Shown here in pieces: positions 2,953 to 63,990 of a DNA stretch of 64,000 bases. Source of the DNA: Eledone cirrhosa (lineage: Eukaryota); the NCBI GenBank assembly GCA_964016885.1, contig OZ024741.1, forward strand, positions 239,506,001 through 239,570,000, written 5' to 3'. Position numbers and translations under genes: made by a program. Each line of letters begins with the position of its first letter. The first letter of the stretch is position 1. Under the pieces are notes generated by a model, which was not told the DNA's origin, did not search any database, and saw only the letters and a program-made list of their open reading frames with translations.

Positions 2953-5900
2953 TTAACTAGCAACAACATCTGGTGTTGAAGGTAACTGTCTCTCTGGAGG
3001 TTTCACATATCTGTCTTGGTAATGGTCTCTCTCATTGTTGCTTGATACATCAGGTGGGGCACCATAGATTCCTGAAACAAGTACATCAACTCAACTTACT
3101 ACATAGTCGACATAGACAAACATTAGGTAATTACTGACATTAGTTATCAATCTTTTGTTCAGAACATTCAATTGACTAAGATATAACATAACAATCATTA
3201 ATGAAAATGTGTTTTATTATACCTGAAGAATTGAAATATTATTTAAGTGATCCAATTATTAGAGGTTAACTGAGAATATAAATTAATTATATTAATGATA
3301 ATAGACCCAGAGTAATATATATACTCTGGTAAAGTAGAAACTATTAAACATTACATCTGTGTAGAAACATATATTCACTTATTATAAAATTTATAAAGAA
3401 AGATTGCTAGAAATAATCTTATATTGTTTCACAGTTGTTGAAATTAGAAATTATAAAAATTGAATCCAAACAAATAGATAAATAAAATTGTTTTACCTGA
3501 CATTGCTGGTATTTCTTCATACTGTCTACTTGACCTCTCACTCCAGCACTGTCCACTACTCTTACGACTGGTCAATGTATCAGTAGGATAGTTAGCAGAT
3601 GGTCTGTTGTCTCCATAAGATGTCACCTCTATAGGTTGACTGTATTTCTGCAGTAAAATATAGGTATAATATAGATAGGGTGTAAAGATATATGGTACCA
3701 TTATCTATAAAGAAAACAAAACAATTCTATAGATGCTTCTTATCTGACAACTTTCAATCCTACCATAGAAAATGTACCCAGTATACATAATTAAAAGGCA
3801 GATGTATTGCAGATAATTATCTTATAGATCACAATTAAAAAGAGAAGTGTTAATAGCATTTTTAGACCTTTCTTTATTGGTGACAATATCAATTTAAATT
3901 CTGAGTGACTTAGTATGTTTGTAATGAAATGTAGTCATAGCTGACAGAGAATTCAGCCTATTTATTTTAGAGAGTAATCTGAATCAAACAAAGATCATAT
4001 AAATAAATGTTAGACTTGCTAAAAACAAAGTTATTTAGACTGTGCAATGTATGAATAAATCTACGATTCTTCTGGTGAGGGTCATGTAAACGAGTCACTT
4101 GCCAACAAATATTTTACAATATGCAAACAGCAATAAATCTTTGATGATTTCATATTTCTAAAAGGAACAGATTACATTTTTCATCAGAACATCATAATAT
4201 CATGTTTTCAATCAGAGATATTCTATATAAAAACTAATGGGAAAATAAACAATACTCCTAAATTAACAGAGTAACTATATAAGAAATAATATCCCTACTT
4301 AATTAAATATTTATTAACAGATAGAAAGTATATAATACAGTTTACCTTTGTAGATTTTTGAAGAGATCTATTCATTGTTGATGTCTTCCAGTCTTCAGGA
4401 TAGTAATGGCTTCTAGACTGACTATATCTGTCTGATATCTCTCCTCGATTACCTGACATCACAGATACACCGTTGTTACTTTGATAGATCAACTGTCTCA
4501 TCTCATTACGACATTGGTATGCCTGTTTCTCTTCTGTTGTTCTAGCTGAGTTATTTCTTACATTGTTACATCTCACAATACACAATGTTATAGAAACCAC
4601 AATAGCTATAGATACTATCACAGCTGCTACTACAATGATAATCAACAATGTTGCATCTATTGTGTTATCAGTTGGTACATGGACAGCTGTGAACATTGGT
4701 GATGTCTTGTTACTAACAGTCAGTGTTAAAGAGACACTAGTTGTTGCTGACAGAACTGGAGTACCACTGTCTTTCACAACAAACTCCAGTTGATATGATC
4801 CGGCATCATTTTGGTAAACTGTGCGAGAGTAAGATAAGACACCAGTGAATGAGTCCAGTTTAAATAATTGTTTCTCATTACCTGAAAGGATTTCATATCT
4901 GAGAAAAGCATTCATGTGACTGTCTATATCAGAGGCTTTCAGAAGTGTGATGTCATTCTTACTTTGTGGATGATAGTGGACATCAAGAGTCAAAGGGTCA
5001 ACACTAGGAAATGTAAAATATGGAGCATTATCATTTTTATCCAATACTTCTACTTCAACATTTACTGTGTTATTTAGAGATGGTGTTCCATTGTCTTTGA
5101 CTAAAACCTCAAAGTCATAGAAATCTCTGTGTTCTCTGTCTAAAGACTGGTTTGTTGAAATAAAGCCAGAGTTGATAATCTGGAATGGTAGACGATATTG
5201 GTGTTTATTTCTCAGATAATAACTTAATTCACCTCCCTTACCAACATCTGGGTCTGTAGCATTGATAAAACCAATAGGGAAATTAGCTTTGTCATTCTCA
5301 TAGGTAAGGAACTTGAATGTATCTTTGGTAAAGTGTGGTTTTACATCATTCACATCTAACACTTGTATTGAGAGATCTTTATCAGTTTTCAGAGAAGGTA
5401 ATCCTTTATCTTGACAGGAGACAGTAAAGTGATAATGTTCCTGTGTCTCTCTGTCTACTGCTTTCTTTAGAACTATTTTATATTCTTTAGATCCCATTGA
5501 CTGTAGTTTGAATGTATCGTGTTTAATATCACAGCTGACTTCTCCATTGTGTCCAACATCATTGTCAGTGACCATCACATAAGCAATGAAACTACCAACT
5601 TTGATATCTTCCAGAATGGTAGCTGTGTTGTGATTCTCTGTAGAAATATAGTTGACATCAATATTTGGAGGATTGTTGTGTTGGTTGATAACATTTACCA
5701 TAACAGTTGCTATGGCACTGAGTGGTGGACTGCCGTTATCTCTGGCTTCTATGTATAATTTAAAAGACTCTTCCATATCAATATCTGAAGACTTAGCTAA
5801 ATATAATTTTCCAGTATTTTCAACTAAATTAAAGTATCTTTTCATTTTTTCTGCAGTTTTCCTTGCAAAATAAAAAGATATTTTACCATTCCTGCCAATA

Positions 5901-6697
5901 TCTAAATCATTGGCAGATAATGTCACTAGTGGAATATTCTTCGTATGTTTATGCTCTATAGAGACATTGTAGATACTTTGGGTAAACTGTGGTGTGTTAT
6001 CATTTTCATCTTCTACAGATATTTTAACATTTAAAATACTTTGTTTTGGTGGAGTTCCTGCATCTTTAGCAATTACCTCAATATTGTAACTGTCTTCCTT
6101 TTCTCTGTCTAATTTTTCTTTCAAAATAATTCTTAATGTTGATATTTCATCAGTTTGTTTAGAAACTGATAAAGAAAAATATGCATTATACTTTTTTAAC
6201 TCATATTTGATTAAGCTGTTCTGATATCCAATGTCTTTATCCACAGCATTGGGTATTGACAGTGTTGATCCTCTGCCATCTCTCTCTGAAAACTGAATAT
6301 TGACTTGTTCAGTTGGAAACTCAGGTTGGTGGTCATTGATGTCTTCTATTATGACTTTAATTTTTAATATCTTCATAAATGTCTTGGATTTGTGAACAGC
6401 AACTTTCACTATTTCAAAACATTCTTTCTCATAACTACACACAGACTCAGCATCCAATGTCTGAACAGTGTACAGTTTACCTGTTTTTGTCACATTGAAC
6501 AACTGTTCTCCTTTTTGTTGTAGTTGACTAAATGTAATTAAATCCTTATTCTTTAAGGAGCTATCTGATGTCTGTAAGTCAGTAGCAATGTCCCCTACAT
6601 AAGTATAGGCATTACTCTCTTCTTTAACATGGTATGTGATATGTTCACTTAGATAACAGTGGAAGAACATCAGTAAAATACACAGAAATAACAACAT
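2953..6697 (-). CDS. Pcdh: Protocadherin gene B, 6 cadherin repeats + TM + cytoplasmic tail, ~873 aa
   Basis: Exons 6697-4346 (AAG|gtaaac, phase 0), 3647-3497 (KYSQ...PAMS, phase 1), 3071-2953 (GIYGAPPD...PDVVAS*). Cadherin motifs DINDHQP, LDRE, DENDN, DVNDVKP, DKNDNAP; hydrophobic TM LLIIIVVAAVIVSIAIVVSITLCIV; GT-AG introns keep frame. Confidence 0.93.
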
Positions 6698-8509: not shown

Positions 8510-11500
8510 TTAACTAGCAACAACATCTGGTGTTGAAGGTAACTGTCTCTCTGGAGGTTTCACATATCTGTCTTGGTAATGGTCTCTCTCATTGTTGCTT
8601 GATACATCAGGTGGGACACCATAGATTCCTGAAACAAGTACGTCAACTCAACTTACCATATAGTTCATAAAAATGCCATATATTTACAGACGGAAATTAG
8701 TAATCAATCTCTTGTCTACTAGGTTCACGAGGTTAAGATACGAAATTAAAGAAGTATAGGTCAGTTCCGTTAATAATAGACCCAGAGTGTGACATATATA
8801 CTCTGGTAAAGTAGAAACTATTAAATATAACATCTGTGTAGAAACATATATTCACTTATAAAATTTATAAAGAAAGATTGATAGAAACAATCTTAGATTC
8901 ACAGTTGTTGAAATTAGAAATTATGAAAATTGAATTCTAATAAATAGATAAATAGAATTGTTTTACCTGACATTGCTGGTATTTCTTCATACTGTCTACT
9001 TGACCTTTCACTCCAACACTGGCCACTACTCTTACGACTGGTCAATGTATCAGTGGGATAGTTAGCAGATGGTCTGTTGTCTCCATAAGATGTCACCTCT
9101 ATAGGTTGACTGTATTTCTGCAGTAAAATATAGGTACAATATAGATAGAGTGTAAAGATATATGGTACCATCATCTATAAAAAAAAAACATCAATTCTAT
9201 AGATGCTTCTTATCTGACAACTTTCAATCCTACCATGGGAAATGTACCCAGTATACATAAGTAAAAGGCAGATGTATTGCAGATAATTATCTTATAGATC
9301 ACAATTAAAAAGAGAAGTCTTAATAGCATTTTTAGACCTTTCATTACTGGTGACAATATCAATTTACATTGTGTGTGACTTAGTATGATTGTAATGAAAT
9401 GTTGTAGTCATCGCTGACAGATTTGTCTTAGAGAGGAATCTGACTCATACAAAGATCTTATAAATCAATGTTAACTTAGACTTGCTAAAAAGAAGTTATT
9501 TAGACAACAATGTATGAATAAATCCAGGATTCTCCTGGTGATGCCTATGTGAGTCACTTGCCAACAAATGATTTATGCAAACAGCACTACTTCTTTGATA
9601 ATTTCATATTTCAAAAAGTAACAGATTACATTTTTCATCAGAACATCTTGTTTTTAATCAGAAATATTCTATATGAAAACTGATGGGAAATTAAACAGTA
9701 CTCTTATATTAAAAGAGTAACTATATAATAAATAATATCCTACTTGATCAAATATTATTTACGAACAGATAAAAAATATATAATATAGTTTACCTTTGTG
9801 GATTTTTGAAGAGATCTGTTCATTGTTGATGTCTTCCAGTCTTCAGGATAGTAATGGCTTCTAGACTGACTATATCTGTCTGATATATCTCCTCGATTAC
9901 CTGACATCACAGATACACCGTTGTTACCTTGATAGATCAACTGTCTCATTTCATTACGACATTGGTATGCCTGTTTCTCTTCTGTTGTTCTAGCTGAGTT
10001 ATTTCTTACATTGTTACATCTCACAATACACAATGTTATAGAAACCACAATAGCTATAGATACTATCACAGCTGCTACTACAATGATAATCAACAATGTT
10101 GCATCTATTGTGTTATCAGTTGATACATGGACAGCTGTGAACATTGGTGATGTCTTGTTACTAACAGTCAGTGTTAAAGAGACACTAGTTGTTGCTGACA
10201 GAACTGGAGTACCACTGTCTTTCACAACAAACTCCAGTTGATATGATCCAGCATCATTTTGGTAAACTGTGCGAGAGTAAGATAAGACACCGGTGAATGA
10301 GTCCAGTTTAAATAATTGTCTCTCATTACCTGAAAGGATTTCATACCTGAGAAAAGCATTCATGTGACTGTCTATATCAGAGGCTTTCAGAAGTGTGATG
10401 TCATTCTTACTTTGTGGATGATAGTGGACATCAAGAGTGAAAGGGTCAACACTAGGAAATGTAAAATATGGAACATTATCATTTTTATCTAATACTTCCA
10501 CTTCAACAGTCACTGTATTATTTAGAGATGGTGTTCCATTGTCTTTGACTAAAACCTCAAAGTCATAGAAATCTCTGTACTCTCTATCTAAAGACTGGTT
10601 TGTTGAAATAAAGCCAGAGTTGATAATCTGGAATGGTAGACGATATTGGTGTTTATTTCTCAGATGATAACTTAATTCACCTCCCTTACCAACATCTGGG
10701 TCTGTAGCATTGATAAAACCAATAGGGAAATTAGCTTTGTCATTCTCATAGGTAAGGAACTTGAATGTATCTTTGGTAAAGTGTGGTTTTACATCATTCA
10801 CATCTAAGACTTGTATTGAGAGATCTTTATCAGTTTTCAGAGAAGGTAATCCTTTATCTTGACAGGAGACAGTAAAGTGATAATGTTCCTGTGTCTCTCT
10901 GTCTACTGCTTTCTTTAGAACTATTTTATATTCCTTAGATCCCATTGACTGTAGTTTGAATGTATCATGTTTGATATTACAGCTGACCTCTCCATTTTGT
11001 CCAACATCATTGTCAGTGACCATCACATAAGCAATGAAACTACCAACTTTGATATCTTCTAGAATGGTAGCTGTGTTGTGATTCTCTGTAGAAATATAGT
11101 TGACATCAATATTTGGAGGATTGTTGTGTTGGTTGATAACATTTATCATAACAGTTGCTATAGAACTGAGTGGTGGACTGCCATTATCTCTGGCTTCTAT
11201 ATATAATTTAAAAGACTCTTCCATATCCATTTCTGAAGATTTAGCTAAATATAACTTTCCAGTATTTTCATCTAAATCAAAGTATCTTTTCATTTTCTCT
11301 GAAGTTGTCCTAGCAAAATAGAAAGATATTTTACTATTTCTACCAATATCTAAATCATTAGCAGATAATGTCACTACTGGAATATTCTTTTTATGTTTAT
11401 GTTCTATAGAGACATTGTAGACACTTTGAGAAAATTCTGGTTTATTATCATTTTCATCTTCTACAGATATTTTAACATTTAAAATACTTTGTTTTGGTGG

Positions 11501-12145
11501 AGTGCCACCATCTTTAGCAATGACCTCAATATTGTAGCTGTCTTTCTTTTCCCTGTCTAATTTCTTTTCTAAAATAATTTCTAATGTTGATATTCCACCA
11601 GCTTCCTTGGAAACACTTAATGAAAATTGTTCATTATTATCTTTTAGTTCATATTTAATTAATCTATTTTGATACCCAACATCTTTGTCAACAGCATTGG
11701 GTATGGCCTTCTTCATACCATCTCGATCTCCTTCCCCAAACATAAGAGTGATGTCTTTCTCAGGAAACTCAGGTTGGTGGTCATTGATGTCTTCTATTAT
11801 GACTTTAATTTTTAATATCTTCATAAATGTCTTGGATTTGTGAACAGCAACTTTAATTATTTCAAAACATTCTTTCTCATAACTACACACAGACTCAGCA
11901 TCCAATGTCTGAACAGTGTACAGTTTACCTGTTTTTGTCACATTGAACAATTGTTCTCCCTTTTGTTGTAGTTGACTAAATGTAATTAAATCCTTATTCT
12001 TTAAGAAGGAGCTATCTGATGTCTGTAAGTCAGTAGCAATGTCCCCTATATAGGTATAGGGATTACTCTCTTCTTTAACATGGTATATAATATGTTCACT
12101 TAGATAACAGTGGAAGAAAGTCAGTAAAATACACAGAAATAACAT
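8510..12145 (-). CDS. Pcdh: Protocadherin gene C, ~873 aa
   Basis: Exons 12145-9794, 9117-8967, 8628-8510; same motifs, phases and GT-AG sites as gene B. Confidence 0.93.
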
Positions 12146-16226: not shown

Positions 16227-19200
16227 TTAACTAGCAACAACATCTGGTGTTGAAGGTAACTGTCTCTCTGGAGGTTTCACATATCTGTCTTGGTAATGGT
16301 CTCTCTCACTGTTGCTTGACACATCAGGTGGGACACCATAGACTCCTGAAACAAGTACATCAACTCAACTTACCACATAGTTCATATAAATGCTATACAG
16401 TTACTGACAGAAATTAGTAATCAACCTCTTGTCAACAAGGTTCACAGAGTTAACATATAAAATAACAATTATTAAAGAAGTTATATTTTCCCAACCCTAA
16501 TGTCCTTAGATATAATACTTTCAATGATCCAATGATTAGTGGTTGACGGAGAATATAGGTCAGTTTCATTAATGATAATAGACCCAGAGTATGATGTATA
16601 TAAGGTGATGAAGTAGAAACTATTAAACATTATATCTATGTAGAAACATATATTCATTTATTATAACATTTATAAAGATTGATAGAAATATCAGATTGTT
16701 TCATAATTGTGGAAATTAAAAATTATGAAAAGTAAATTAAAATAAATAGATAAAAGAATATATTGTTTTACCTGACATTGCTGGTATTTCTTCATACTGT
16801 CTACTTGACCTCTCACTCCAGCATTGTCCACTCTTACGACTGGTCAATGTATCAGTGGGATAGTTAGCAGCTGGTCTGTTGTCTCCATAAGATGTCACCT
16901 CTATAGGTTGACTGTATTTCTGCAGTACAATATAGTTAAAATATAGATAGGGTGTAAACATATCATTAAAGACAATATATCTAATATATACTAAATTTCC
17001 TATATTGATAGGTACATGAATATTGATAAAATATTAGACAATTGTATACAAAAGTATCAACTACATAGACCCTTCTACTTGATCATTTTCATTTATACCA
17101 TAGAAGATGTATACAGTACATTTTATTTTATGGCTTACTCTAAGGTATAAACATTTCCTTTCTAGTTCTTCCTTTCTTAGTGATAAGTTCATATTGTGTG
17201 TGAGTTTGTGATACAAGGTTGTAGTCATACCAGGCTGGAAATTTGAAAAGTAGCATTACAGAAGAACTGTTTACAGAACAATCTGAATCCCAAAAAGATA
17301 GCTAATATCTTATTGACATAGTATAAAAGAGACTGTCTAAAAACAAAGTGTCTGAATACACCATTGATATTCCTGATGGGCTTTTTAAAGGTTCATTAAA
17401 CAAAATATAATTTAAAACATGAAAAAACAGTAAATCTTGGATTATCTCAGATTTTAAAAACAAACAAAATTCATTTCTCATCTACAGATCAAAATGCTAT
17501 TTTTTCAACCAGAAATAGTCAATTACTAAAGAATACTCATAAATTGATAATTTTAACTGAGCAAGATATTTATTGAAATATTTCTGACTAAGAGATAGGA
17601 AATATATAATATAATTTACCTTTGTGGATTTTTGAAGAGATCTGTTCATTGTTGATGTCTTCCAGTCTTCAGGATAGTAATGGCTTCTAGACTGACTATA
17701 TCTGTCTGATATCTCTCCTCGATTACCTGACATCACAGATACACTGTTGTTACCTTGATAGATCAACTGTCTCATCTCATTACGACATTGGTATGCCTGT
17801 TTCTCTTCTGTTGTTCTAGCTGAGTTATTTCTTACATTGTTACATCTCACAATACACAATGTTATAGAAACCACAATAGCTATAGATACTATCACAGCTG
17901 CTACTACAATGATAATCAACAATGTTGCATCTATTGTGTTATCAGTTGGTACATGGACAGCTGTGAACATTGGTGATGTCTTGTTACTAACAGTCAGTGT
18001 CAAAGAGACACTAGTTGTTGCTGACAGAACTGGAGTACCACTGTCTTTCACAACAAACTCCAGTTGATATGATCCAGCATCATTTTGGTAAACTGTGCGA
18101 GAGTAAGATAAGACACCAGTGAATGAGTCCAGTTTAAATAATTGTCTCTCATTACCTGAAAGGATTTCATACCTGAGAAAAGCATTCATGTGACTGTCTA
18201 GATCAGAGGCTTTCAGAAGTGTGATGTCATTCTTACTTTGTGGATGATAGTGGACATCAAGAGTGAAAGGGTCAACACTAGGAAATGTAAAATATGGAGC
18301 ATTATCATTTTTATCTAATACTTCCACTTCAACATTCACTGTGTTATTTAGAGATGGTGTTCCATTGTCTTTGACTAAAACCTCAAAGTCATAGAAATCT
18401 CTGTGTTCTCTGTCTAAAGATTGGTTTGTTGAAATAAAACCAGAGTTGATAATCTGGAATGGTAGATGATATTGGTGTTTATTTCTCAGATAATAACTTA
18501 ATTCACCTCCCTTACCAACATCTGGGTCTGTAGCATTGATAAAACCAATAGGGAAATTAGCTTTGTCATTTTCATAGGTAAGGAACTTGAATGTATCTTT
18601 GGTAAAGTGTGGTTTTACATCATTCACATCTAAGACTTGTATTGAGAGATCTTTATCAGTTTTGAGAGAAGGTAATCCTTTATCTTGACAGGAGACAGTG
18701 AAGTGATAATGTTCCTGTGTCTCTCTGTCTACTGCTTTCTTTAGAACTATTTTATATTCCTTAGATCCCATTGACTGTAGTTTGAATGTATCATGTTTAA
18801 TATTACAGCTGACCTCTCCATTGTGTCCAACATCATTGTCAGTGACCATCACATAAGCAATGAAACTACCAACTTTGATATCTTCCAGAACGGTAGCTGT
18901 GTTGTGATTCTCTGTAGAAATATAGTTGACATCAATATTTGGAGGATTGTTGTGTTGGTTGATAACATTAACCATAACAGTTGCTATGGAACTGAGAGGT
19001 GGATTGCCATTATCTCTGGCTTCAATATATAATTTAAAAGACTCTTCCATATCAATTTCTGAAGATTTAGCTAAATATAACTTTCCAGTATTTTTATCTA
19101 AATCAAAGAATCTTTTCATTTTCTCTGAAGTTGTCCTCGCAAAATAGAAAGATATTTTACCATTTCTACCAATATCTAAATCATTAGCAGATAATGTCAC

Positions 19201-19971
19201 TACTGGAATATTCTTTTTATGCTTGTGCTTTATAGAGACATTGTAGATACTTTGGGAGAATTTTGGTATATTATCATTTTCATCTTCTACAGATATTTTA
19301 ACATTTAAAATACTTTGTTTTGGTGGAGTTCCACCATCTTTAGCAATGACCTCAATATTGTAACTATCTTTCTTTTCCCTGTCTAATTTCATTTCTAAAA
19401 TAATTCTTAATGTTGATATTCCACCAGCTTCTTTTGAAACACTTAATGAAAATTGTCTTTCATCATCTTTCAGTTCATATTTAATTAATCTGTTTTGATA
19501 TCCCACATCTTTATCAATGGCACTGGGAATAGCCTTCTTCAAACCTCTACCATCTCCTTCCCCAAACACTAGAGTGATTTCTTTCCCTGGAAACTCAGGT
19601 TGGTGGTCATTGATGTCTTCTATTATGACTTTAATTTTTAATATCTTCATAAATGTCTTGGATTTGTGAACAGCAACTTTCACTATTTCAAAACATTCTT
19701 TCTCATAACTACACACAGACTCAGCATCCAATGTCTGAACAGTGTACAGTTTACCTGTTTTTGTCACATTGAACAATTGTTCTCCCTTTTGTTGTAGTTG
19801 ACTAAATGTAATTAAATCCTTATTCTTTAAGAAGGAGCTATCTGATGTCTTTAAGTCAATAGCAATGTCCCCTACATAAGTATAGGGATTACTCTCTTCT
19901 TTAACATGGTATGTGATATGTTCACTTAGATAACAGTGGAAGAAAGTCAGTAAAATACACAGAAACAACAT
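16227..19971 (-). CDS. Pcdh: Protocadherin gene D, ~872 aa
   Basis: Exons 19971-17620, 16919-16772 (one Ser shorter), 16345-16227; intact frame. Confidence 0.93.
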
Positions 19972-23658: not shown

Positions 23659-26600
23659 TTAACTAGCAACAACATCTGGTGTTGAAGGTAACTGTCTCTC
23701 TGGAGGTTTCACATATCTGTCTTGGTAATGGTCTCTCTCATTGTTGCTTGACACATCAGGTGGGACACCATAGATTCCTGAAACAAGTACATCAACTCAA
23801 CTTACTACAGAGTTCATATATATGATATTTACTGACTGCACGAATACTGTTAACTGGTGACATTAGGAGTTTCAGGTTTTTTAACATCAGATACTCTCAC
23901 CCAGGTGCCTCAGCCAGAATTTGTGGCCATGTGTCTCTTCCCATACATAGTGTGCATCTTCAAAATTACAGCTATTTTGAAGCAACTTCTGCTACCTCAG
24001 TGTGGTTAATGTGATGGTCCTTTGACAACTGGCTCCTGTAAAACCCAATAACATGTGGCTGTGTTAAGGGGATGGCCTAAAACCATCCTACCTCAATGGA
24101 CTTACACCTCATTTACTACCCATTGCTCTGGCAAACTTTCACAAGCCATGTATACATCATCCTCATCTTCTCATTGGCTTCCTTAATGCAATACTGTGAG
24201 GAAATGGAGAGTTCTATAAGAACTACCTGCTTGGAAGCTTCTGAGGACAGCAGTATGTCTGACCTTAGTGAAGCTGTGGTCAGTTTCTAGAAAGTTAAGT
24301 TATTTCCCCAAATCATTATGGATTGCATTACAACCTCCAGAAGATGGTCATAGCATCTACAGTGACACCCATTGTTCAGGGATTTGGGGCAGCTACTGAA
24401 GATGTGAACCAAGGTCAATTTTCCCTTGTACAAAGGGCAGGTTGGAGACTCCATCTTCCCCCAGCAGAACAAGTCTGTTGAGTTAGCAGAATGGCAATAC
24501 ACTGACAAAACTAAGAGGTTAATTTGATGGGGGGTTGGCTTTCCAAAGCTCAGGTCATAAAACTTTCCACATCAATGCTTAATCCCATCTTGTCTAGGCT
24601 CTCTATTGCTACATTCCAACCATCCTGCTGGGTCACTCCTTAATAAATATGTGTACCTCATTCTGGATCAACAATCATTAGTCCTTCACCTGAACTTTTC
24701 CATAGTGATATGTGCTGCTTCTTAGGTCAGCCCTTCCATGAGGCACTATACCCCCAAACACCTCGTGCTGTAGTCATGACTTTGCAGTATCCACAGACTA
24801 CACTAGCCTCTATTTCCATCTTGTCTTGACCCCAATACATACCTAAATGTCTTTTAGGTCACAAGACTCACAATATTGTTGAATCCCCATAATATGAGCA
24901 ACCATGAAGTCATGCTTCAGGCTACTGAAAGAGAATTTCAGTTTATGGTAATGCTTAAAGAGAGTGATGATTAAAACTTAATGACAGATTGTTTTGAAAT
25001 TGTTGAAACTATATGTTATAATGGCAAACATGAGTGTGTGAAATTGTTTTACCTGACATTGCTGGTATTTCTTCATACTGTCTACTTGACCTTTCACTCC
25101 AGCACTGTCCACTCTTACGACTGGTCAATGTATCAGTGGGATAGTTTGAAGATGGTCTGTTGTCTCCATAAGATGTCACCTCTATAGGTTGACTGTATTT
25201 CTGCAGTACAGTATAGTTAAATATATAGATAGGATGTAAACATATCATTTAAGACAATATATCTAATACATGCTAAATTTCCTATATTAATAGGTAAATG
25301 AATATTGTTAAAATATTAGACAATTGTATACAAAAGCATCAATTATATAGACCCGTCTACTTGATCATTTTCATTTATACCATAGAAAATGTATACAGTA
25401 CATTTTCTTTTATGGCTTACTCTAAGGTATAAAAGTCAACATTTCCTTTCTAGTTCTTCCTTTCTTAGTGATAAGTTCATATTGTGTGAGTTTGTGATAC
25501 AAGGTTGTAGTCATACCAGGCAGGAAATTTGAAAGGTATCCTTACAGAAGAACTGTTTACAGAGCAATCTGAATTCCAAAAAGATAGTCTCTTTTATAAT
25601 ATGTCAATAAGATATTACCTGTCTAAAAATGAAGTGATTCATAGGCTGTAATGTCTGAATACATCATTGATATTCCTGATGGGATTTTTAAAGGTTCATT
25701 AAACAAAATACATCTTAGAACATATAAACTACAGTAAATCTTGGATTATCTCAGATTTTAAAAACCAACAAAGTTCATTTCTCATCCCCACATCATAACC
25801 CTATTTTTCTAACAAAATAATAGTCTATATCATATATATCAATCAGTAAAGAATACTCATAAATTGATAATTTAAACTGTGCAAACTGAAATATTCAGCT
25901 TCATGATTCTTATTGAAATATTTCTGACTAACAGATAGAAAATATATAATATAGTTTACCTTTGTGGATTTTTGAAGAGATCTGTTCATTGTTGAGGTTT
26001 TCCAGTCTTCAGGATAGTAATGACTTCTAGACTGACTATATCTGTCTGATATCTCTCCTTGATTACCTGACATCACAGATACACTGTTGTTACCTTGATA
26101 GATCAACTGTCTCATCTCATTACGACATTGGTATGCCTGTTTCTCTTCTGTTGTTCTAGCTGAGTTATTTCTCACATTGTTACATCTCACAATACACAAT
26201 GTTATAGAAACCACAATAGCTATAGATACTATCACAGCTGCTACTACAATGATAATCAACAATGTTGCATCTATTGTGTTATCAGTTGGTACATGAACAG
26301 CTGTGAACATTGGTGATGTCTTGTTACTAACAGTCAGTGTTAAAGAGACACTAGTTGTTGCTGACAGAACTGGAGTACCACTGTCTTTCACAACAAACTC
26401 CAGTTGATATGATCCAGCATCATTTTGGTAAACTGTGCGAGAGTAAGATAAGACACCGGTGAATGAGTCCAGTTTAAATAACTGTCTCTCATTACCTGAA
26501 AGGATTTCATACCTGAGAAAAGCATTCATGTGACTGTCTATATCAGAGGCTTTCAGAAGTGTGATGTCATTCTTACTTTGTGGATGATAGTGGACATCAA

Positions 26601-28311
26601 GAGTGAAAGGGTCAACACTAGGAAATGTAAAATATGGAGCATTATCATTTTTATCTAATACTTCCACTTCAACATTCACTGTGTTATTTAGAGATGGTGT
26701 TCCATTGTCTTTGACTAAAACCTCAAAGTCATAGAAATCTCTGTGTTCTCTGTCTAAAGATTGGTTTGTTGAAATAAAGCCAGAGTTGATAATCTGGAAT
26801 GGTAGACGATATTGGTGTTTATTTCTCAGATGATAACTTAATTCACCTCCCTTACCAACATCTGGGTCTGTAGCATTGATAAAACCAATAGGGAAATTAG
26901 CTTTGTCATTCTCATAGGTAAGGAACTTGAATGTATCTTTGGTAAAGTGTGGTTTTACATCATTCACATCTAACACTTGTATTGAGAGATCTTTATCAGT
27001 TTTGAGAGGAGGTAATCCTTTATCTTGACAGGAGACAGTAAAGTGATAATGTTCCTGTGTCTCTCTGTCTACTGCTTTCTTTAGAACTATTTTATATTCT
27101 TTAGATCCCATTGACTGTAGTTTGAATGTATCATGTTTGATATTACAGCTGACTTCTCCATTGTGTCCAACATCATTGTCAGTGACCATCACATAAGCAA
27201 TGAAACTACCAACTTTGATATCTTCCAGAATGGTAGCTGTGTTGTGATTTGGTGTAGAAATAAAGTTGACATCTATATTTGGAGGATTGTTGTGTTGGTT
27301 GATAACATTTACCATAACAGTTGCTATGGAACTTAGTGGTGGACTGCCATTATCTCTGGCTTCTATATATAATTTAAAAGACTCTTCCATATCAATTTCT
27401 GAAGATTTAGCTAAATATAACTTTCCAGTATTTTCAACTATATTAAAGTGCTTTTTCATTTTCTCTGCAGTTTTTCTAGCAAAATAGAAAGATATTTTAC
27501 CATTCCTACCAATATCTAAATCATTGGCAGATAATGTCACTACTGGAATATTCTTTTTATGTTTATGTTCTATGGAGACATTATAGATACTTTTGGAAAA
27601 TTGTGGTGGATTATCATTTTCATCTTCTACAGATATTTTAACATTTAAAATACTTTGTTTTGGTGGAGTTCCTCCATCTTTAGCAATGACTTCAATATTG
27701 TAACTATCTTCCTTTTCTCGGTCTAATTTCTTCTTCAAAATAATTCCTATTGTTGATATTTCATCTGTTTGTTTAGAAACTGATAAAGAAAAGTATGCAT
27801 TATCATTTTTTAATTCATATTTAATTAAGCTGTTCTCATATCCTACATCTTTGTCAATGGCGCTGGGAATGGGTCTCTTCTTACCATCTCGATCTCCTTC
27901 ACCAAACATTAGATTGATGTCTTTCTCAGGAAACTCAGGTTGGTGGTCATTGATGTCTTCTATTATGACTTTAATTTTTAATATCTTCATAAATGTCTTG
28001 GATTTGTGAACAGCAACTTTAATTATTTCAAAACATTCTTTCTCATAACTACACACAGACTCAGCATCTAATGTCTGAACAGTGTACAGTTTACCTGTTT
28101 TTGTCACATTGAACAATTGTTCTCCCTTTTGTTGTAGTTGACTGAATGTAATTAAATCCTTATTCTTTAAGAAGGAGCTATCTGATGTCTGTAAGTCAGT
28201 AGCAATGTCCCCTACATAAGTATAGGGATTACTCTCTTCTTTAACATGATATGTGATATGTTCACTTAGATAACAGTGGAAGAAAGTCAGTAAAATACAC
28301 AAAAATAACAT
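23659..28311 (-). CDS. Pcdh: Protocadherin gene E, ~872 aa
   Basis: Exons 28311-25960, 25200-25053, 23777-23659; intact frame; last intron enlarged by a retroelement. Confidence 0.93.
23840..24945 (-). mobile_element. Decayed non-LTR retrotransposon fragment with zinc knuckle and restriction-like endonuclease remnant
   Basis: Minus strand reads CPLYKGKLTLVHIFSSC (CCHC-like), then SLRSDILLSSEASKQVVLIELSI (PD..E-type RLE). Absent from the same intron in most paralogs. Ends approximate. Confidence 0.7.
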
Positions 28312-31726: not shown

Positions 31727-33786
31727 TTAACTAGCAACAACATCTGGTGTTGAAGGTAACTGTCTCTCTGGAGGTTTCACATATCTGTCTTGGTAATGGT
31801 CTCTCTCATTGTTGCTTGACACATCAGGTGGGACACCATAGATTCCTGAAACAAGTACATCAACCCAACTTACTATATAGTTCACAAAGACAGTCAATAG
31901 TTATTTACTGACCTCAGTTATCAATCTTTTATCCACTAGATTCACTGGATTAAGATATATAATATCAATCATTAAAGAATTAATAGTACACCATACAATT
32001 ACATCTTTACAATCTTAAACACATCAATAAACCACTGACTAGTTGAATAAAACAATAGATTTAGTAATTTAAAATCAATATAAAATTCATCAAAATATTA
32101 GTCATATATTAGTAGAAATATATTGACAAAATGAATAAAAATAACAAATTATGAACATCAGAACACAATGTTTTGTTTAAAGCATACTTTGATATGTAAC
32201 ACTGAGAAAGATGATCAAGATATTGTTTTACCTGACATTGCTGGTATTTCTTCATACTGTCTACTTGACCTTTCACTCCAGCACTGTCCACTACTCTTAT
32301 GACTGGTCAATGTATCAGTAGGATAGTTAGAAGATGGTCTGTTGTCTCCATAAGATGTCACCTCTATAGGTTGACTGTATTTCTGATTTAAAATAGTTAC
32401 AAGATAGAGTATAGGGATATTTAGGACAATGTACCTAAAATATACTAAATTTTGAGATATTGATGAGCACATGTATACTTTTGAAATATTCAATTATTTA
32501 TTATAAAAGAATCAACTATGTAGATCCTCTTTATTTGATCCTTTTTCATCATACCAAAGAACATGTTGCAAATAATTATTTCATAGCTTACTCTGAAAAA
32601 TTTAACTACTTATACCTATTTTCAGTGCAAATTTGGAGGTATAACAGGTAGGAAATTTGACATGTTTGTCAACAGAAATACAGTTTCCTAAACAATCTGA
32701 AATTATCCAAAATAGATGATAGAGTTAAAATCCTATTGACAAAGTTACACTGGCAACAAATGTCAAGATTCTGGCTCCACAGTGTATGACTGCATCCTTG
32801 ATTCTGTTGACATTGCACTCATTAAATTTACCAAAAAAATATGTACAACATCGATTATCTCATATTTTAAACATAAACTGAACACCATATGATAATGTTA
32901 TTTTTTTGCCATCAGGTATTCTATATTAAAATCAATCAAAAATTAAACAGCAACCTTAAATTGGTAATTCAAACAGTACTATAAAATACTAGCTGATGTA
33001 CCCGACTTAGGCTGGGAGAACAATTAAGAGAAAACAGATAATAGAGAAAACGATTGTATTTGATGTGTTGTCTGGTTTACAGTATGAGGTGAGACTGTGT
33101 GTGTGAGAGAGAGAGAGACATAAAAAAAAAATAATAAAACTTCCTTATTAGGCTGGGTGAGTAAACTGCTGATTAAATGGCAGCATTGGCCTTGGATTTT
33201 AAATGTGAAATAAGCACAGTTAGCATGACCTTTTTCAGCTGCAAAAGACATCATCTGAAACGCAGCAATATACTGCATAATATTGCTTCTGAAGTGTTTA
33301 GTTTCGTTAGTATGGTCTGTAAGCAGTATATGGATAAAAGCTGAAGGGTCCTCTATCAGTGGAAGTCTGACATTTCCTCCTAAAGAACATATGCCAAGTG
33401 TAATATCCATGCTACCAATCGCAACTTTAGGATCATTTCTATAATTCTTCAATGGCTCATATGAAAATGTAGCTCTTAGCCAGTATATTCTGCCTTGAAG
33501 AGTCGTTTGGGCTCGTCGAGTTTGCATCATTTGCATACTGAGCGAGTTACGGCTGGCCTTGCCGAATATAGAAAATAAAATTGGAATTTTATTTCTCGCC
33601 CTAGCAGACTTTAATTGTATCGCTCTCTGTATAACGGCCTATCTCTGCCTCTCTCTCTCACTTTAGATGTGTGTGTGTTCATTATGTCAGTCGTCAGTGT
33701 GTACGCACACACACACACTCTCACATACACACACACACATATACTTGTCAGTCATCACATTTATATGTATGTGTAGATGTGTATGT

Positions 33787-33852
<66 letters not shown>

Positions 33853-36557
33853 ATTCTCTGTGCAACTTACTAAGGCCGAAAGTATGTAACGAACGCACAA
33901 ACCCATACACAATCATATACAAAATGTGACATTGTCGTGGTGGTGGGGATGGTGTTTATGTTATAAAATGTCATTAACTATAGTTGACTGTAGAAATATT
34001 AGTTTGTTTTAATCCAAATGAAAATAAAAATTACATGTTAATCTTGGGATCTAATACCTTGTAAAATTTGATTTGATTTTGTCAAGCTGTTTGAGAATGT
34101 ATAAGGAACAGGCAAACAGAGAGACAAATAATTTTATATACATAGAGATTAGGTTTTATCATAGAGTCAAACATTATTAATAGAAAGAAAATATGAAAAA
34201 TAGGTTACCTTTGTGGATTTCTGAAGAGATCTGTTCATTGTTGATGTCTTCCAGTTTTCAGGATAGTAATGGCTTCTAGACTGACTATATCTGTCTGATA
34301 TCTCTCCTCGATTACCTGACATCACAGATACACTGTTGTTACCTTGATAAATCAACTGTCTCATCTCATTACGACATTGGTATGCCTGTTTCTCTTCTGT
34401 TGTTCTAGCCGAGTTATTTCTCACATTGTTACATCTCACAATACACAATGTTATAGAAACCACAATAGCTATAGATACTATCACAGCTGCTACTACAATG
34501 ATAATCAACAATGTTGCATCTATTGTGTTATCAGTTGATACATGGACAGCTGTGAACATTGGTGATGTCTTGTTACTAACAGTCAGTGTTAAAGAGACAC
34601 TAGTTGTTGCTGACAGAACTGGAGTACCACTGTCTTTCACAACAAACTCCAGTTGATATGATCCGGCATCATTTTGGTAAACTGTGCGAGAATAAGATAA
34701 GACACCAGTGAATGAGTCCAGTTTAAATAACTGTCTCTCATTACCTGAAAGGATTTCATACCTGAGAAAAGCATTCATGTGACTGTCTAGATCAGAGGCT
34801 TTCAGAAGTGTGATGTCATTCTTACTTTGTGGATGATAGTGGACATCAAGAGTGAAAGGGTCAACACTAGGAAATGTAAAATATGGAGCATTATCATTTT
34901 TATCTAATACTTCCACTTCAACATTCACTGTGTTATTTAGAGATGGTGTTCCATTGTCTTTGACTAAAACCTCAAAGTCATAGAAATCTCTGTGTTCTCT
35001 GTCTAAAGATTGGTTTGTTGAAATAAAGCCAGAGTGGATAATCTGGAATGGTAGACGGTATTGGTGTTTATTTCTCAGATAATAACTTAACTCACCTCCC
35101 TTACCAACATCTGGGTCTGTAGCATTGATAAAACCAATAGGGAAATTAGCTTTGTCATTCTCATAGGTAAGGAACTTGAATGTATCTTTGGTAAAGTGTG
35201 GTTTTACATCATTCACATCTAACACTTGTATTGAGAGATCTTTATCAGTTTTGAGAGGAGGTAATCCTTTATCTTGACAGGAGACAGTAAAGTGATAATG
35301 TTCCTGTGTCTCTCTGTCTACTGCTTTCTTTAGAACTATTTTATATTCTTTAGATCCCATTGACTGTAGTTTGAATGTATCATGTTTGATATCACAGCTG
35401 ACCTCTCCATTGTGTCCAACATCATTGTCAGTGACCATCACATAAGCAATGAAACTACCAACTTTGATATCTTCCAGAATGGTAGCTGTGTTGTGATTCT
35501 GTGTAGAAATATAGTTGACATCAATATTTGGAGGATTGTTGTGTTGGTTGATAACATTTACCAGAACAGTTGCTATGGAACTGAGTGGTGGATTGCCATT
35601 ATCTCTGGCTTCTATGTATAATTTAAAAGACTCTTCCATATCAATTTCTGAAGATTTAGCAAAATATAACTTTCCAGTATTTTCATCTAAATCAAAGAAT
35701 CTTTTCATTTTCTCTGACGTTGTCCTTGCAAAATAGAAAGATATTTTAGCATTCCTGCCAATATCTAAATCATTGGCAGATAATGTCACTACTGGAATAT
35801 TCTTTTTATGATTATGTTTTATAGACACATTGTAGATACTTTTGGCAAATTCTGGTTTATTATCATTTTCATCTTCAACAGATATTTTAACATTTAAAAT
35901 ACTTTGTTTTGGTGGAGTTCCTCCATCTTTACCAATGACTTCAATGTTGTAGCTGTCTTTTTTTTCTCTGTCTAATTTCTTTACTAAAATAACTTCTAAT
36001 GTTGATATTCCACCAGCTTCATTGGAAACACTAAGTGAAAATTGTCCTTCATTATCTTTTAGTTCATATTTAATTAATCTGTTTTGATATCCCACATCTT
36101 TATCAATGGCACTGGGAATAGCCTTCTTCAAACCTTTACCATCTCCATCTCTAAACACTAGAGTGATTTCTTTCCCTGGAAACTCAGGTTGGTGGTCATT
36201 GATGTCTTCTATTATGACTTTAATTTTTAATATCTTCATAAATGTCTTGGATTTGTGAACAGCAACTTTCACTATTTCAAAACATTCTTTCTCATAACTA
36301 CACACAGACTCAGCATCCAATGTCTGAACAGTGTACAGTTTACCTGTTTTTGTCACATTGAACAATTGTTCTCCTTTTTGTTGTAGTTGACTGAATGTAA
36401 TTAAATCCTTATTCTTTAAGGAGCTATCTGATGTCTGTAAGTCAGTAGCAATGTCCCCTACATAAGTATAGGGATTTCTTTCTTCTTTAACATGGTATGT
36501 GATATGTTCACTTAGATAACAGTGGAAGAAAGTCAGTAAAATACACAGAAACAACAT
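31727..36557 (-). CDS. Pcdh: Protocadherin gene F, ~872 aa
   Basis: Exons 36557-34209, 32382-32232, 31845-31727; intact frame; Helitron in the intron after the large exon. Confidence 0.93.
32989..34148 (-). mobile_element. Non-autonomous Helitron with an N-terminal Rep-associated fragment
   Basis: Minus strand 5'-TC...CTAG-3' inserted between A and T with no TSD (empty site in gene H at 51291/51292). Imperfect GC hairpin ~33001-33016. ORF 33536-33024 has KHFRSNIMQYIAAFQMMSF...FKIQGQCCHLISSL, like the Helitron N-terminal domain. Internal (TG)n. Confidence 0.85.
33793..33850. repeat. (TG)n microsatellite inside the Helitron
   Basis: Uninterrupted TG run. Confidence 0.95.
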
Positions 36558-39856: not shown

Positions 39857-42800
39857 TTAACTGACAACATCTGGTGTTGAAGGTAACTGTCTCTCTGGAG
39901 GTTTCACATATCTGTCTTGGTAATGGTCTCTCTCATTGTTGCTTGAGACATCAGGTGGGACACCATAGATTCCTGAAACAAGTACATCAACTCAACTTAC
40001 TACAGAGTTCATATATATAATATTTACTGACTGCACGAATACTGTTAACTGGTGACATTAGGAGTTTCAGGTCTTTTAACATCAGATACTCTCACCCAGG
40101 TGCCTCAGCCAGAATTTGTGGCCATGTGTCTCTTCCCATACATGGTGTGCATCTTCAAAATTACAGCTATTTTGAAGCAACTTCTGCTACCTCGGTGTGG
40201 TTAATGTGATGGTCCTTTGACAACTGGCTCCTGTAAAACCCAACAACATGTGGCTGTGTTAAGGGGATGGCCTAAAACCATCCTACCTCAATGGACTTAC
40301 ACCTCATTTACTACCCATTGCTCTGGCAAACTTTCACAAGCCATGTATACATCATCCTCATCTTCTCATTGGCTTCCTTAATGCAATACTGTGAGGAAAT
40401 GGAGAGTTCTATAAGAACTACCTGCTTGGAAGCTTCTGAGGACAGCAGTATGTCTGACCTTAGTGAAGCTGTGGTCAGTTTCTAGAAAGTTAAGTTATTT
40501 CCCCAAATCATTAAGGATTGCATTACAACCTCCAGTAGATGGTCATAGCATCTACAGTGACACCCATTGTTCAGGGATTTGGGGCAGCTACTGAAGATGT
40601 GAACCAAGGTCAATTTTCCTTTGTACAAAGAGCAGGTTGGAGACTCCATCTTCCCCCAGCAGAACAAGTCTGTTGAGTTAGCAGAATGGCAATACACTGA
40701 CAAAACTAAGAGGTTAATTTGATGGGGGGTTGGCTTTCCAAAGCTCAGGTCATAAAACTTTCCACATCAATGCTTAATCCCATCTTGTCTAGGCTCTCTA
40801 TTGCTACATTCCAACCATCCTGCTGGGTCACTCCTTAATAAATGTGTGTACCTCATTCTGGATCAACAATCATTAGTCCTTCACCTGAACTTTGCCACAG
40901 TGATATGTGCTGCTTCTTAGGTCAGCCCTTCCATGAGGCACTATACCCCCAAACACCTCGTGCTGTAGTCATGACTTTGCAGTATCCAGACTACACTAGC
41001 CTCTATTTCCATCTTGTCTTGACCCCAATACATACCTAAATGTCTTTTAGGTCACAAGACTCACAATATTGTTGAATCCCCATAATATGAGCAACCATGA
41101 AGTCATGCTTCAGGCTACTGAAAGAGAATTTCAGTTTATGGTAATGCTTAAAGAGAGTGATGATTAAAACTTAATGACAGATTGTTTTGAAATTAGATGT
41201 TATCATAGAAAAATTGAATGAATGAAATTGCTTTACCTGACATTGCTGGTATTTCTTCATACTGTCTACTCGACCTTTCACTCCAGCACTGTCCACTCTT
41301 ACGACTGGTCAATGTATCAGTGGGATAGTTAGAAGATGGTTTGTTGTCCCCATAAGATGTCACCTCTATAGGTTGACTGTATTTCTGCAGTACAATATAG
41401 TTAAAATATAGATAGCATAAGAGAAATCAAATGCTGTGTGCAGGAGAGGCGGTTGCGCTGGTATGGACATGTGATGCGTATGAAGGATGAAAGCTGCATA
41501 AAAAGGTGCAGAGCACTAGAAGTTGATGGAAACCGCGGAGTGGAGAGACCCAAGATGACCTGGGATGAGGTGATAAAAGCCGACCTTACCCAATTACACC
41601 TCTCAAAGGCAATGACACACGACCGTGACCTCTGGCGTCACGCAGTAATACAGAGTACCCGACCTCCCATGGGTACAAGCTGAAGCATATAGACAATATG
41701 CCCCCACCGCAAGGTGGTCGTGGAGGTGCCACGGCAAAAAAGCACCACCCAGCCCACACTGTAAAGTGGACGTGTAGGCGCCACGAAAAAGCACCCAGCA
41801 CTCACTGTAAATGAGGTTGGTGTTAGGAAGGGCATCCAGCTGTAGAAATCAAGCCAAATCAGTTCCTGTATGAGCAAGGCATGGTCAGCCGACCAGACAC
41901 TGCCCACAACAGGACAACCCGTCTCACCCATGCTAGCGTGGAAGAACGGACGTAAAACGGTGATGATGATGATGATGATAGCATGTAAACATATCATTAA
42001 AGACAATATATCTAATATATACTAAATTTCCTATATTGATAGGTACATGAATATTGTTAAAATATTAGACAATTGTATACAAAAGCATCAATTATATAGA
42101 CCCTTCTACTTCATCATTTTCATTTATACCATAGAAAATGTATACAGTACATTTTATTTTATGGCTTACTCTAAGGTATAAACATTTCCTTTCTTGTTCT
42201 TCCTTTCTTAGTGATAAGTTCATATTGTGTGTGAGTTTGTGATACAAGGTTGTAGTCATACCAGGCTGGAAATTTGAAAAGTACCATTACAGAAGAACTG
42301 TTTACAGAACAATCTGAATTCCAAAAAGATAGCTAATATCTTATTGACATAGTATAAAAGAGACTGTCTAAAATCAAAGTGATTCATAGACTGTAATGTC
42401 TGAAAACATCATTGATATTCCTGATGGGATTTTTAAAGGTTCATTAAACAAAATACAACTTAGAACATGAAAACAACAGTAAATCTTGGATTATCTCAGA
42501 TTTAAAAAAAAAAACAAAAATTCATTTCTCATCTCCACAACATAATGGGTTTTTTTTTCAACCAGAAATAGTTTATATTATATAAATCAATTAGTAAAGA
42601 AATTAGTAATTTAAACTGTGCAAACTAAAATATTCATGTTCATGATACTTATTGAAATATACACACGTGGACATGCCAACAAAGTCAGAAAACAACACAG
42701 CTCCCATGACTTTCGGAAACATTTTTTCACACTCAGAGTTGCTGAATCATGGAACAAACTATCTGCATCAGTTGTTAGCTGTCGAGACACTGCATCCTTT

Positions 42801-52100: not shown

Positions 52101-53709
52101 CATTATCTTTGACTAAAACCTCAAAGTCATAGAAATCTCTGTGTTCTCTGTCTAAAGACTGGTTTGTTGAAATAAAGCCAGAGTTGATAATCTGGAATGG
52201 TAGATGATATTGGTGTTTATTTCTCAGATAATAACTTAATTCACCTCCCTTACCAACATCTGGGTCTGTAGCATTGATAAAACCAATAGGGAAATTAGCT
52301 TTGTCATTCTCATAGGTAAGGAACTTGAATGTATCTTTGGTAAAGTGTGGTTTTACATCATTCACATCTAACACTTGTATTGAGAGATCTTTATCAGTTT
52401 TAAGAGAAGGTAATCCTTTATCTTGACAGGAGACAGTAAAGTGATAATGTTCCTGTGTCTCTCTGTCTACTGCTTTCTTTAGAACTATTTTATATTCTTT
52501 AGATCCCATTGACTGTAGTTTGAATGTATCATGTTTGATATTACAGCTGACCTCTCCATTGTGTCCAACATCATTGTCAGTAACCATCACATAAGCAATG
52601 AAACTACCAACTTTGACATCTTCCAGAATGGTAGCTGTGTTGTGATTCTGTGTAGAAATATAGTTAACATCAATATTTGGAGGATTGTTATGTTGGTTAA
52701 TAACATTTACCATAACAGTTGCAATGGAACTAAGAGGAGGGCTGCCTCCATCTCTGGCTTTTATGTATAATTTAAAAGACTCTTCCATATCAATTTCTGA
52801 TGATTTAGCTAAATACAACTTTCCAGTATTTTCATCTAAATCAAAGAATCTTTTCGTTTTCTCTGAAGTTGTCATTGCAAAATAGAAAGATATTTTACCA
52901 TTGCTGCCAACATCTAAATCTTTGGCAGATAATGTCACTACTGGAATATTCTTTTTATGTTTATGTTTTATAGAGACATTGTAGATACTTTGAGAGAATT
53001 TTGGTATATTATCATTTTCATCTTCTACAGATATTTTAACATTTAAAATACTTTGTTTTGGTGGAGTTCCTCCATCTTTAGCAAGGACATCAATGTTGTA
53101 ACTGTCTTTTTTTTCCCTGTCTAATTTCTTTTCTAGAATAATTCTTAATGTTGATATTCCACCAGCTTCCTTGGAAACACTTAACGAAAAGTGTTCCTCG
53201 TCATGTTTCAGTTCATACTTAATTAATCTGTTCTGATACCCAACATCTTTATCCACAGCATTTTCTATTGATCTCTTGGTGCCTTTTCCATCAGTTTCAG
53301 AAAACTGAATATTCACTTGTTCAGTTGGAAACTTAGGTTGGTGGTCATTGATGTCTTCTATTATTACTTTAATTTTTAATATCTTCATAAATGTCTTTGA
53401 TTTGTGAACAGCAACTTTCACTATTTCAAAACATTCTTTCTCATAACTACACACAGACTCAGCATCCAATGTCTGAACAGTGTACAGTTTACCTGTTTTT
53501 GTCACATTAAACAATTGTTCTCCCTTTTGTTGTAATTGACTAAATGTAATTAAATCCTTATTCTTTAAGAAGGAGCTATCTGATGTCTGTAAGTCAGTGG
53601 CAATGTCCCCTACATAAGTATAGGGATTACTCTCTTCTTTAACATGGTATGTGATATGTTCACTTAGATAACAGTGGAAGAAAGTCAGTAAAATACACAG
53701 AAATAACAT
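49103..53709 (-). CDS. Pcdh: Protocadherin gene H, ~873 aa, variant C-terminus QLATTSGVEGN*
   Basis: Exons 53709-51358, 49765-49615, 49221-49103; terminal exon carries a 33-bp in-frame inversion. Confidence 0.92.
49948..50813 (+). mobile_element. Longer 5'-truncated CR1/L2-like LINE
   Basis: KCTTMHFGGKNP...ERDLGITVSSDLRWIKHV, VRPHLEF, VWNPYL and the same 3' end and ATT tail as the other copies. Empty site in gene F near 32560. Confidence 0.8.
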
Positions 53710-63531: not shown

Positions 63532-63990
63532 TGTATATGTCAGCATGTGTGTGTATACATATACAGAATTATGGTATATAACATTAAAAATTATTTCAAT
63601 GATAATATTTACACAAAACCTACACTACTGTATATATGTAAATGGTATTCTTGTTCAATATTTAGTATGTACTAAGACCATATAATGTCTGACTGAATGA
63701 TTCAATATTAATATATAAAAATGTGAAAATAAAATAAAAAGATAAATATGGTGATAATGAAGGATGACTGCAAATATTTTGAGAAGTGTGTTATATAAAT
63801 CTACAATCAAACATATATTCCTCTCCCTCATTGTTTCTTACAAAATTCTTGATAGCCATGTTGGTAAAGAAGACATTCAGTGAGAACTAACACGGATCTA
63901 ATATGGACACCATTACAATATTATATTTTGATGTTATAATATTAGAGGTTATTATTTTACATGACTTGATAAATAAAGAATAAAACTTAC

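Follow-up and report, generated by a model that had tools for sequence, protein, structure and literature searches.

Candidate SH2 and SH3 docking motifs in the cytoplasmic tails of octopod protocadherins

A protocadherin sub-array and its tail motifs

We analyzed a stretch of 64,000 nucleotides from Eledone cirrhosa (contig OZ024741.1, positions 239,506,001 to 239,570,000; hereafter the window, with positions counted from its first letter), which contains eight complete protocadherin genes, all on the minus strand and arranged head-to-tail, together with the beginning of a ninth paralog (1-140) that is truncated by the window edge. All eight gene models have GT-AG introns, three coding exons and an open product of 871-873 amino acids. 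Pfam detected one Cadherin_2 and five Cadherin stretches in exon 1 of gene 8 and six cadherin stretches in full-length relatives, in which the catenin-binding domain PF01049 gave no match at E-values up to 10. The features of clustered protocadherins were thus found, namely a Cadherin_2-type EC1, six repeats, one transmembrane helix and an array of whole multi-exon genes. Judged by these features, the window is an octopod protocadherin sub-array built of whole-gene duplicates, an arrangement already described for cephalopod protocadherins (PMC9068888; this and the other papers are cited here for passages of their text).

Two short motifs were located in the cytoplasmic tails of the encoded proteins. 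A six-frame scan found YEEI, a predicted SH2 ligand, in all eight genes and RQLPSTP, a predicted class I SH3 ligand, in seven of the eight, as an earlier note on this DNA had claimed; the Tyr and the Arg lie 35 residues apart in gene 8, so that the spacing of about 30 residues given there was also right. The remaining gene, gene 2 (exon 3, 49221-49103), encodes RQLATTS at the SH3 site. At about 49136-49106 this exon carries 13 substitutions in 31 nucleotides, which change the C-terminus and keep the frame and the position of the stop codon, and its flanks match those of the neighboring genes. The cluster may have arisen by gene conversion from a paralog not seen here, or it may reflect focused selection; no similar SH3 variant was found among the database proteins collected. 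When the 165-residue tail was shuffled 200,000 times, Y[ED][ED][ILV] appeared in 1.6%, [RK]xLPxxP in 0.2% and both in 0.0055% of the shuffles, for patterns picked after the sequence was seen.

YEEI and RQLPSTP are encoded by different exons on one spliced mRNA. The contig joint 3070/3496 was present in three of four RNA-like runs in the joint table, and in the fourth run only in the loose-end tables, while the joint 3647 or 3650/4346 was present in three of the four; the contigs covered the exons, and the introns had little or no depth. The type of the four runs is either a guess or not on record, and part of the material comes from related organisms; the joints show the splice form of the subfamily rather than that of this exact gene. 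Exon 2 shares 92-98% identity with 37 database proteins (Octopus bimaculoides, O. sinensis, O. vulgaris and Argonauta hians), 36 of which carry both motifs on one chain. The exon 2 acceptor of gene 1 (57245-57242) is a tandem NAGNAG that includes or omits one Gln, as reflected in the joints 3647/3650 of gene 8, and both forms occur in database proteins and contigs. As for RNA editing, none of the differences listed fell on the Tyr codon (3519-3521), the contigs being partly from related organisms. The features are collected in Table 1.

Table 1. Positions of the protocadherin genes and tail features within the window
Feature	Position	Strand	Basis and content
YEEIP, gene 8	3507..3521	-	predicted SH2 ligand (YEEI 3521-3510); fits YxxPhi too
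RQLPSTP, gene 8	2971..2991	-	predicted class I SH3 ligand; 5 residues before C-terminus
SSGQCWS, gene 8	3540..3560	-	by alignment homologous to DSGHGWS/DSGRGWS of paralogs; betaTrCP-degron-like, 7-13 residues before Tyr
Gene 8 exon 1	4346..6697	-	long open reading frame, Pfam, donor at 4346; signal peptide, six cadherin repeats, transmembrane helix, first ~75 residues of tail
Gene 8 exon 2	3497..3647	-	splice sites, contig joints; 50 codons + 1 nucleotide; degron-like block and Tyr motif
Gene 8 exon 3, coding part including stop	2953..3071	-	variable linker, then invariant block ending in SH3 motif
Gene 7	8510..12145	-	YEEI 8991-8980, RQLPSTP 8548-8528
Gene 6	16227..19971	-	YEEI 16796-16785, RQLPSTP 16265-16245
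Gene 5	23659..28311	-	YEEI 25077-25066, RQLPSTP 23697-23677
Gene 4	31727..36557	-	YEEI 32256-32245, RQLPSTP 31765-31745
Gene 3	39857..45379	-	YEEI 41261-41250, RQLPSTP 39892-39872
Gene 2	49103..53709	-	YEEI 49639-49628; SH3 motif without both prolines
Gene 1	56766..60626	-	YEEI 57116-57105, RQLPSTP 56804-56784

Outside the tails, EC2-EC3 (residues ~120-300; about 6340-5800 in gene 8) is the sole strongly diverged part of the eight paralogs, with 74-85% identity compared with 92-99% elsewhere; the same region is the specificity region of vertebrate clustered protocadherins. The non-coding DNA that follows all eight genes for ~0.65-1.2 kb (~1790-2960 after gene 8; also 63603-64000) is 80-87% identical among the copies, and contigs of the RNA-like runs span part of it. 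This downstream block is possibly a conserved element of the 3' untranslated region or a conversion tract.

Conservation of the motifs in distant paralogs

Repetition in eight copies was rejected as evidence of conservation, since the window genes are 97% identical in protein sequence over exon 2 and 93% over exon 3 and are therefore not independent; a test of conservation must use distant paralogs. We thus searched with residues 640-876 of a full-length relative, and 146 proteins were returned, of which 120 were listed. The tails of the listed paralogs are mostly unlike the window type; nevertheless, the Tyr motif and the terminal proline motif recur. A broad set comprised 47 tails of less than 50% identity, drawn from 118 after eight short or fused proteins were left out, and it includes truncated models and decapod-type proteins. 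YE[ETQ][IL] was present in 26 of the 47 (0.38 in shuffled tails) and [RK]xLPxxP in 15 (0.29 in shuffled tails), whereas plain PxxP and YxxPhi stayed at chance level in this set. In these tails, 114-144 residues separate the Tyr from the membrane, and 2-21 residues follow the proline motif.

An octopod set was picked by tail length alone: 74 of 107 full-length proteins have tails of at least 157 residues, and these yielded 27 tails at less than 60% identity. The Tyr motif, as Y[EQ][ETQ][IL], occurs in 24 of the 27, [R/K]xLPxxP in 16 and both in 14, compared with shuffled means of 0.56 for the Tyr motif and 0.21 for the SH3 motif, while the ectodomains of the same 27 proteins contain neither. 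Among the 236 alignment columns, the Tyr and the Glu at +1 rank as the top two with an identity of 0.89 each, against a median of 0.33; the Leu at +3 reaches 0.78 and the Pro at +4 0.74, the Leu-Pro of the SH3 motif 0.70 and 0.81 and its last Pro 0.67, and no other Tyr column exceeds 0.63. The earlier note had named motifs conserved no better than the flanking tail in distant paralogs as evidence against its proposal, and the opposite was found. Furthermore, in a subset of 15 of the 27 tails whose best BLAST alignment with the query stops short of the motifs, the Tyr motif was present in 12, the SH3 motif in 10 and both in 8; P0137 and P0150, found by the tail profile, were excluded from this subset, although the search words were still drawn from the whole region.

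The commonest proline motif in distant paralogs is KPLPAVP or similar, and the RQLPxxP of the window aligns to the KPLPxxP of the paralogs through a four-residue insertion that brings in another Arg with the correct spacing. That the SH3 consensus survived this insertion, with a different basic residue, suggests that the pattern itself is under selection. Among the 29 members of the window subfamily, the stretch linking the two motifs is variable while both motifs are fixed, and exon 2 is nearly invariant throughout. The tail is predicted to be disordered, as an AlphaFold model of a paralog tail contains no secondary structure elements (mean predicted local distance difference test score, pLDDT, 58.5; predicted template modeling score, pTM, 0.15). 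We conclude that the conservation of the two motifs is a real, selected feature. Paralogs with long tails (for example P0064, P0077, P0092 and P0101) have the extra conserved blocks DVIDLKS and WNLPxRNSF, which are absent in the window type; WNLPxRNSF directly precedes KPLP and loosely resembles the WAVE-interacting receptor sequence (WIRS).

The reach of this conservation was narrower among cephalopods as a whole. A nine-protein clade that includes two Acanthosepion pharaonis (cuttlefish) proteins received a value of 100 in the Shimodaira-Hasegawa-like approximate likelihood ratio test (SH-aLRT), in a quick tree with midpoint root and without bootstrap or outgroup, and we infer the placement of the remaining members with the cuttlefish proteins. 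The homologous Tyr is absent in five of the five spliced tail types of this clade. Conservation across cephalopods, to which the earlier note had looked, held for the divergent octopod tails and is not supported cephalopod-wide. One of four complete tails of the clade ends in RPLPPVP. In P0175 and P0201, also of this clade, YQEI is formed across the joint of exons 1 and 2 and is a possible independent SH2-type site. The A. pharaonis protein P0122 has a 500-residue tail that contains YxxP eight times; seven of these copies belong to alternating DY[LV]EP / TYSQP repeats, which resemble the substrate domain of Cas. A search of 1.84 billion representatives with the tail profile gave 28 matches, of which ten were named octopod proteins and one an unrelated repeat protein judged to be a chance match; gastropods, bivalves and vertebrates were absent from the named matches among the 15 of 28 looked at. 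The same profile gave 43 matches in a word-indexed search, all octopod, and none in the PDB. On present data, the Tyr motif therefore appears to be octopod.

A proposed Src-family docking module and its alternatives

YEEI and RQLPSTP match the ligands to which the earlier note had compared them. The phosphorylated sequence pYEEI is the best ligand of the Src SH2 domain, which reads it at +1 and +3 (PMC7337045), and RQLPSTP fits the class I SH3 pattern (PMC4140816, PMC2956669), in which Src-family SH3 domains contact the Arg, Leu-Pro and Pro of VSL12. These kinases are activated when their SH3 domain is engaged, and FAK activates c-Src through tandem SH3 and SH2 sites (PMC4140816), while the RPLPSPP of p130Cas recruits and activates Src (PMC2956669). 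As the positions conserved in the octopod tails are the ones that a single kinase family reads with its SH2 and SH3 domains, docking is favored, and we lean, by a little, toward the view that the two motifs form an SH2 and SH3 docking module for a Src-family kinase. The Q and P that flank the Tyr motif are also those of the middle-T peptide QYEEIP. In such a module, the SH3 domain of the kinase would bind the proline motif constitutively and weakly, and receptor clustering at cell contacts would bring the kinase to phosphorylate the Tyr. The SH2 domain would then bind phosphotyrosine-Glu-Glu/Thr-Ile/Leu, and the two-point binding would displace autoinhibitory contacts, as described for FAK, with an output to the cytoskeleton or to receptor turnover.

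Other signaling patterns did not stand out. The immunoreceptor tyrosine-based activation motif (ITAM, YxxL/I-x6-12-YxxL/I) was found in none of the 27 octopod tails, the corresponding inhibitory motif (ITIM, hydrophobic at Tyr-2) in 8 against 7.4 in shuffled tails, the class II SH3 pattern in 2 against 3.1, and WIRS (Phi-x-T/S-F, PMC8209697) in 5 against 4.2. A looser F-x-S/T-Y/F was present in 9 of the 27 against 1.35 shuffled, but it was not commoner than in the ectodomains. The PP1 pattern did not rise above chance in the set of 47 tails.

Several observations weigh against a Src-family docking module. The halves come apart: the Tyr motif occurs alone in 10 of the 27 tails, an upper bound because some of these tails stop directly behind exon 2 or may have been given an incorrect final exon, and the SH3 motif occurs alone, with Cys in place of Tyr, in 2, while 1 has neither; within the window, gene 2 has lost both SH3 prolines and kept the Tyr motif. 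The Cys-for-Tyr form is common to an Octopus lineage and an Argonauta protein, and an editing artefact was ruled out for it by its presence in genome-derived proteins of two genera (P0060 and P0139). The lack of the homologous Tyr in the cuttlefish-containing clade counts on the same side. In every tail with both motifs, the Tyr comes first and the SH3 motif second, at a spacing of 27-133 residues in the broad set, whereas in FAK and p130Cas the SH3 site is N-terminal to the phosphotyrosine at a short, fixed distance. A disordered linker of at least 27 residues could accommodate the reversed order, and yet the difference is real. The residue before the last Pro is Thr in the window type, Val, Ile or Leu in 12 of 15 non-redundant tails and Pro in p130Cas; with Thr in place of the Leu of VSL12, the window type is likely a weaker SH3 ligand. 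SH2 specificity is itself loose, as conservative changes cost about threefold (PMC7337045), RxLPxxP is also a high-affinity motif for the nephrocystin SH3 domain (PMC4380453), and a literature search for cephalopod phosphotyrosine data found nothing relevant.

The main rival explanation, which we regard as unlikely, is a receptor-turnover module, in which an unphosphorylated YxxPhi would serve adaptor protein (AP) complexes, next to a betaTrCP phosphodegron and a site for an endocytic SH3 partner (SNX9/18/33). Indeed, YE[E/T][I/L] fits YxxPhi (PMC4389405), SNX proteins and nephrocystin bind the class I motifs of ADAM tails (PMC4380453), and vertebrate PAPC sets a precedent, in that a D/S-rich block places it under the control of GSK3 and betaTrCP (PMC4291225). 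Judged by the betaTrCP degron consensus (PMC10317156), 5 of 24 tails contain the strict form DSGxx(x)S in the 17-residue stretch preceding the Tyr and 6 contain the broad form, compared with 1% of the other 17-residue windows; counted anywhere, the strict form occurs in 5 of the 27 tails against 0.28 shuffled. The degron-like block is carried by the paralogs P0093, P0101, P0087, P0071, P0137 and P0089, and it is retained in cuttlefish-clade tails too. However, the pattern is missing in 18 of the 24 tails and in three of the eight window genes (genes 3, 5 and 6, which lack one Ser codon, so that the broad pattern fits five of the eight), and it is far less conserved than the Tyr motif, while YxxPhi does not require a near-invariant Glu at +1, here as conserved as the Tyr. 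Turnover and docking can also coexist as a phospho-switch.

It is unlikely, in our estimate, that the motifs are phosphotyrosine and SH3 docking sites for other or separate proteins rather than for one Src-family kinase at two points. Tec/Btk29A, Nck/Dock, PI3K p85, Fes/Fer, Frk-like kinases and nephrocystin are candidates for such partners. The independent loss of either motif, the free spacing and the reversed order fit separate partners, as do the persistence of the SH3 motif in the Tyr-less cuttlefish-clade tail P0188, the looseness of SH2 specificity (PMC7337045) and the binding of RxLPxxP and related ADAM motifs by nephrocystin, Tec and SNX SH3 domains (PMC4380453). Yet each motif, taken by itself, fits the optimum of one and the same kinase family, the two stand together in 14 of the 27 divergent tails, and no enrichment was seen for the ITAM, ITIM and class II SH3 patterns. 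An incidental match, in which duplication or gene conversion keeps the whole tail alike, or in which fold conservation or an LC3-interacting (LIR) motif accounts for the pattern, appears highly improbable. Everything is conserved within the window, even roughly 1.1 kb of 3' non-coding DNA (80-87% identity), but in divergent paralogs the motifs stand out against the median column identity, and AlphaFold predicts no fold. The LIR core also fits Y-x-x-I/L, and typical LIRs have acidic residues before the aromatic position, whereas the residues before the Tyr are not acidic here. For two tails, the first ESM Atlas match was a cadherin Y-type LIR cluster (0.78-0.79), but these scores lie below a level attained by one in three shuffled proteins.

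Building on the docking module favored above, we can tentatively envisage a second, intracellular code specific to each paralog, in which each ectodomain would be wired to a Src-activating, a Src-tethering or a silent tail; we consider this possible, though doubtful. Since each gene has its own tail, paralogs would each acquire, lose and restore the SH2 and SH3 halves on their own, as exemplified by the proline loss of gene 2, the Cys-for-Tyr lineage of Octopus and Argonauta, and the window-type SH3 motif rebuilt around an insertion.

Comparison with known systems and implications

The octopod tails resemble FAK and p130Cas in combining a class I proline motif with an acidic-hydrophobic Tyr motif on one disordered chain, and the RPLPSPP of p130Cas is nearly matched by the octopod RQLPSPP and RKLPSPP (P0006 and P0039). 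Unlike in these proteins, the candidate octopod module is located in a receptor tail, with the Tyr first and a variable spacing. ADAM12/15 are likewise membrane proteins with RxLPxxP class I motifs in their tails; they are unrelated proteins, and the avid binding of these sites to nephrocystin indicates that the motif is not specific to Src (PMC4380453).

Vertebrate Pcdh-alpha (CNR) shares with the octopod array the tandem arrangement, the diversified ectodomains and a nearly shared tail, which in vertebrates is tied to tyrosine kinases. The octopod genes, in contrast, are whole-gene duplicates without shared constant exons (PMC9068888). Each of them has its own tail, unlike in vertebrates, where many ectodomains share a single constant tail. 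The vertebrate tail families gave no Pfam match over the octopod motif region at E-values up to 10, and CM1-3 were not found in octopus protocadherins by the pattern search of Styfhals 2019, in the passage cited (PMC6339937). The D/S-rich DSG block in the protocadherin tail, however, resembles the DSR (CM1-type) domain of the delta2-protocadherin PAPC/PCDH8, although only 5-6 of 24 octopod tails have it and the likeness is one of pattern. Given this upstream DSGxxxS-like block, the statement of the earlier note that the tail is unrelated to that of vertebrates is not established. The same applies to its proposed convergence with the binding of Fyn by Pcdh-alpha, for which the source was one sentence in PMC6339937 citing Kohmura 1998; in the text cited from a 2020 review, Fyn and Src are not mentioned, and the interactor table gives FAK, Pyk2 and WAVE (PMC7339444).

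Octopods have 150-170 protocadherins (PMC9068888, PMC9795677). Their intracellular partners were described as unexplored in octopus, with no analogy to vertebrate motifs, and the octopus-specific motifs of Table S2 in the same paper are EC, TM and PP1 patterns only (PMC6339937). In the portion of PMC9795677 cited here, the terms cytoplasmic, intracellular and motif are absent, and PMC11799376 offers, in its corresponding portion, background on WIRS only. The literature search, which did not reach Albertin 2015 and Wang & Ragsdale 2017, found no description of these motifs in cephalopods. The parts themselves are textbook; what is new is that they sit in the tails of receptors from an expanded family, with the two sites in the opposite order and with losses specific to particular paralogs.

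The conserved two-motif module thus provides a candidate class of partners and the exact residues to mutate, and makes signaling by these protocadherins testable. The contrast with the cuttlefish-containing clade suggests that the octopus and squid expansions diverged in signaling as well. For the protocadherins of octopuses, brain-wiring receptors whose inner tails otherwise change fast, the module represents a first testable lead on how they may signal.

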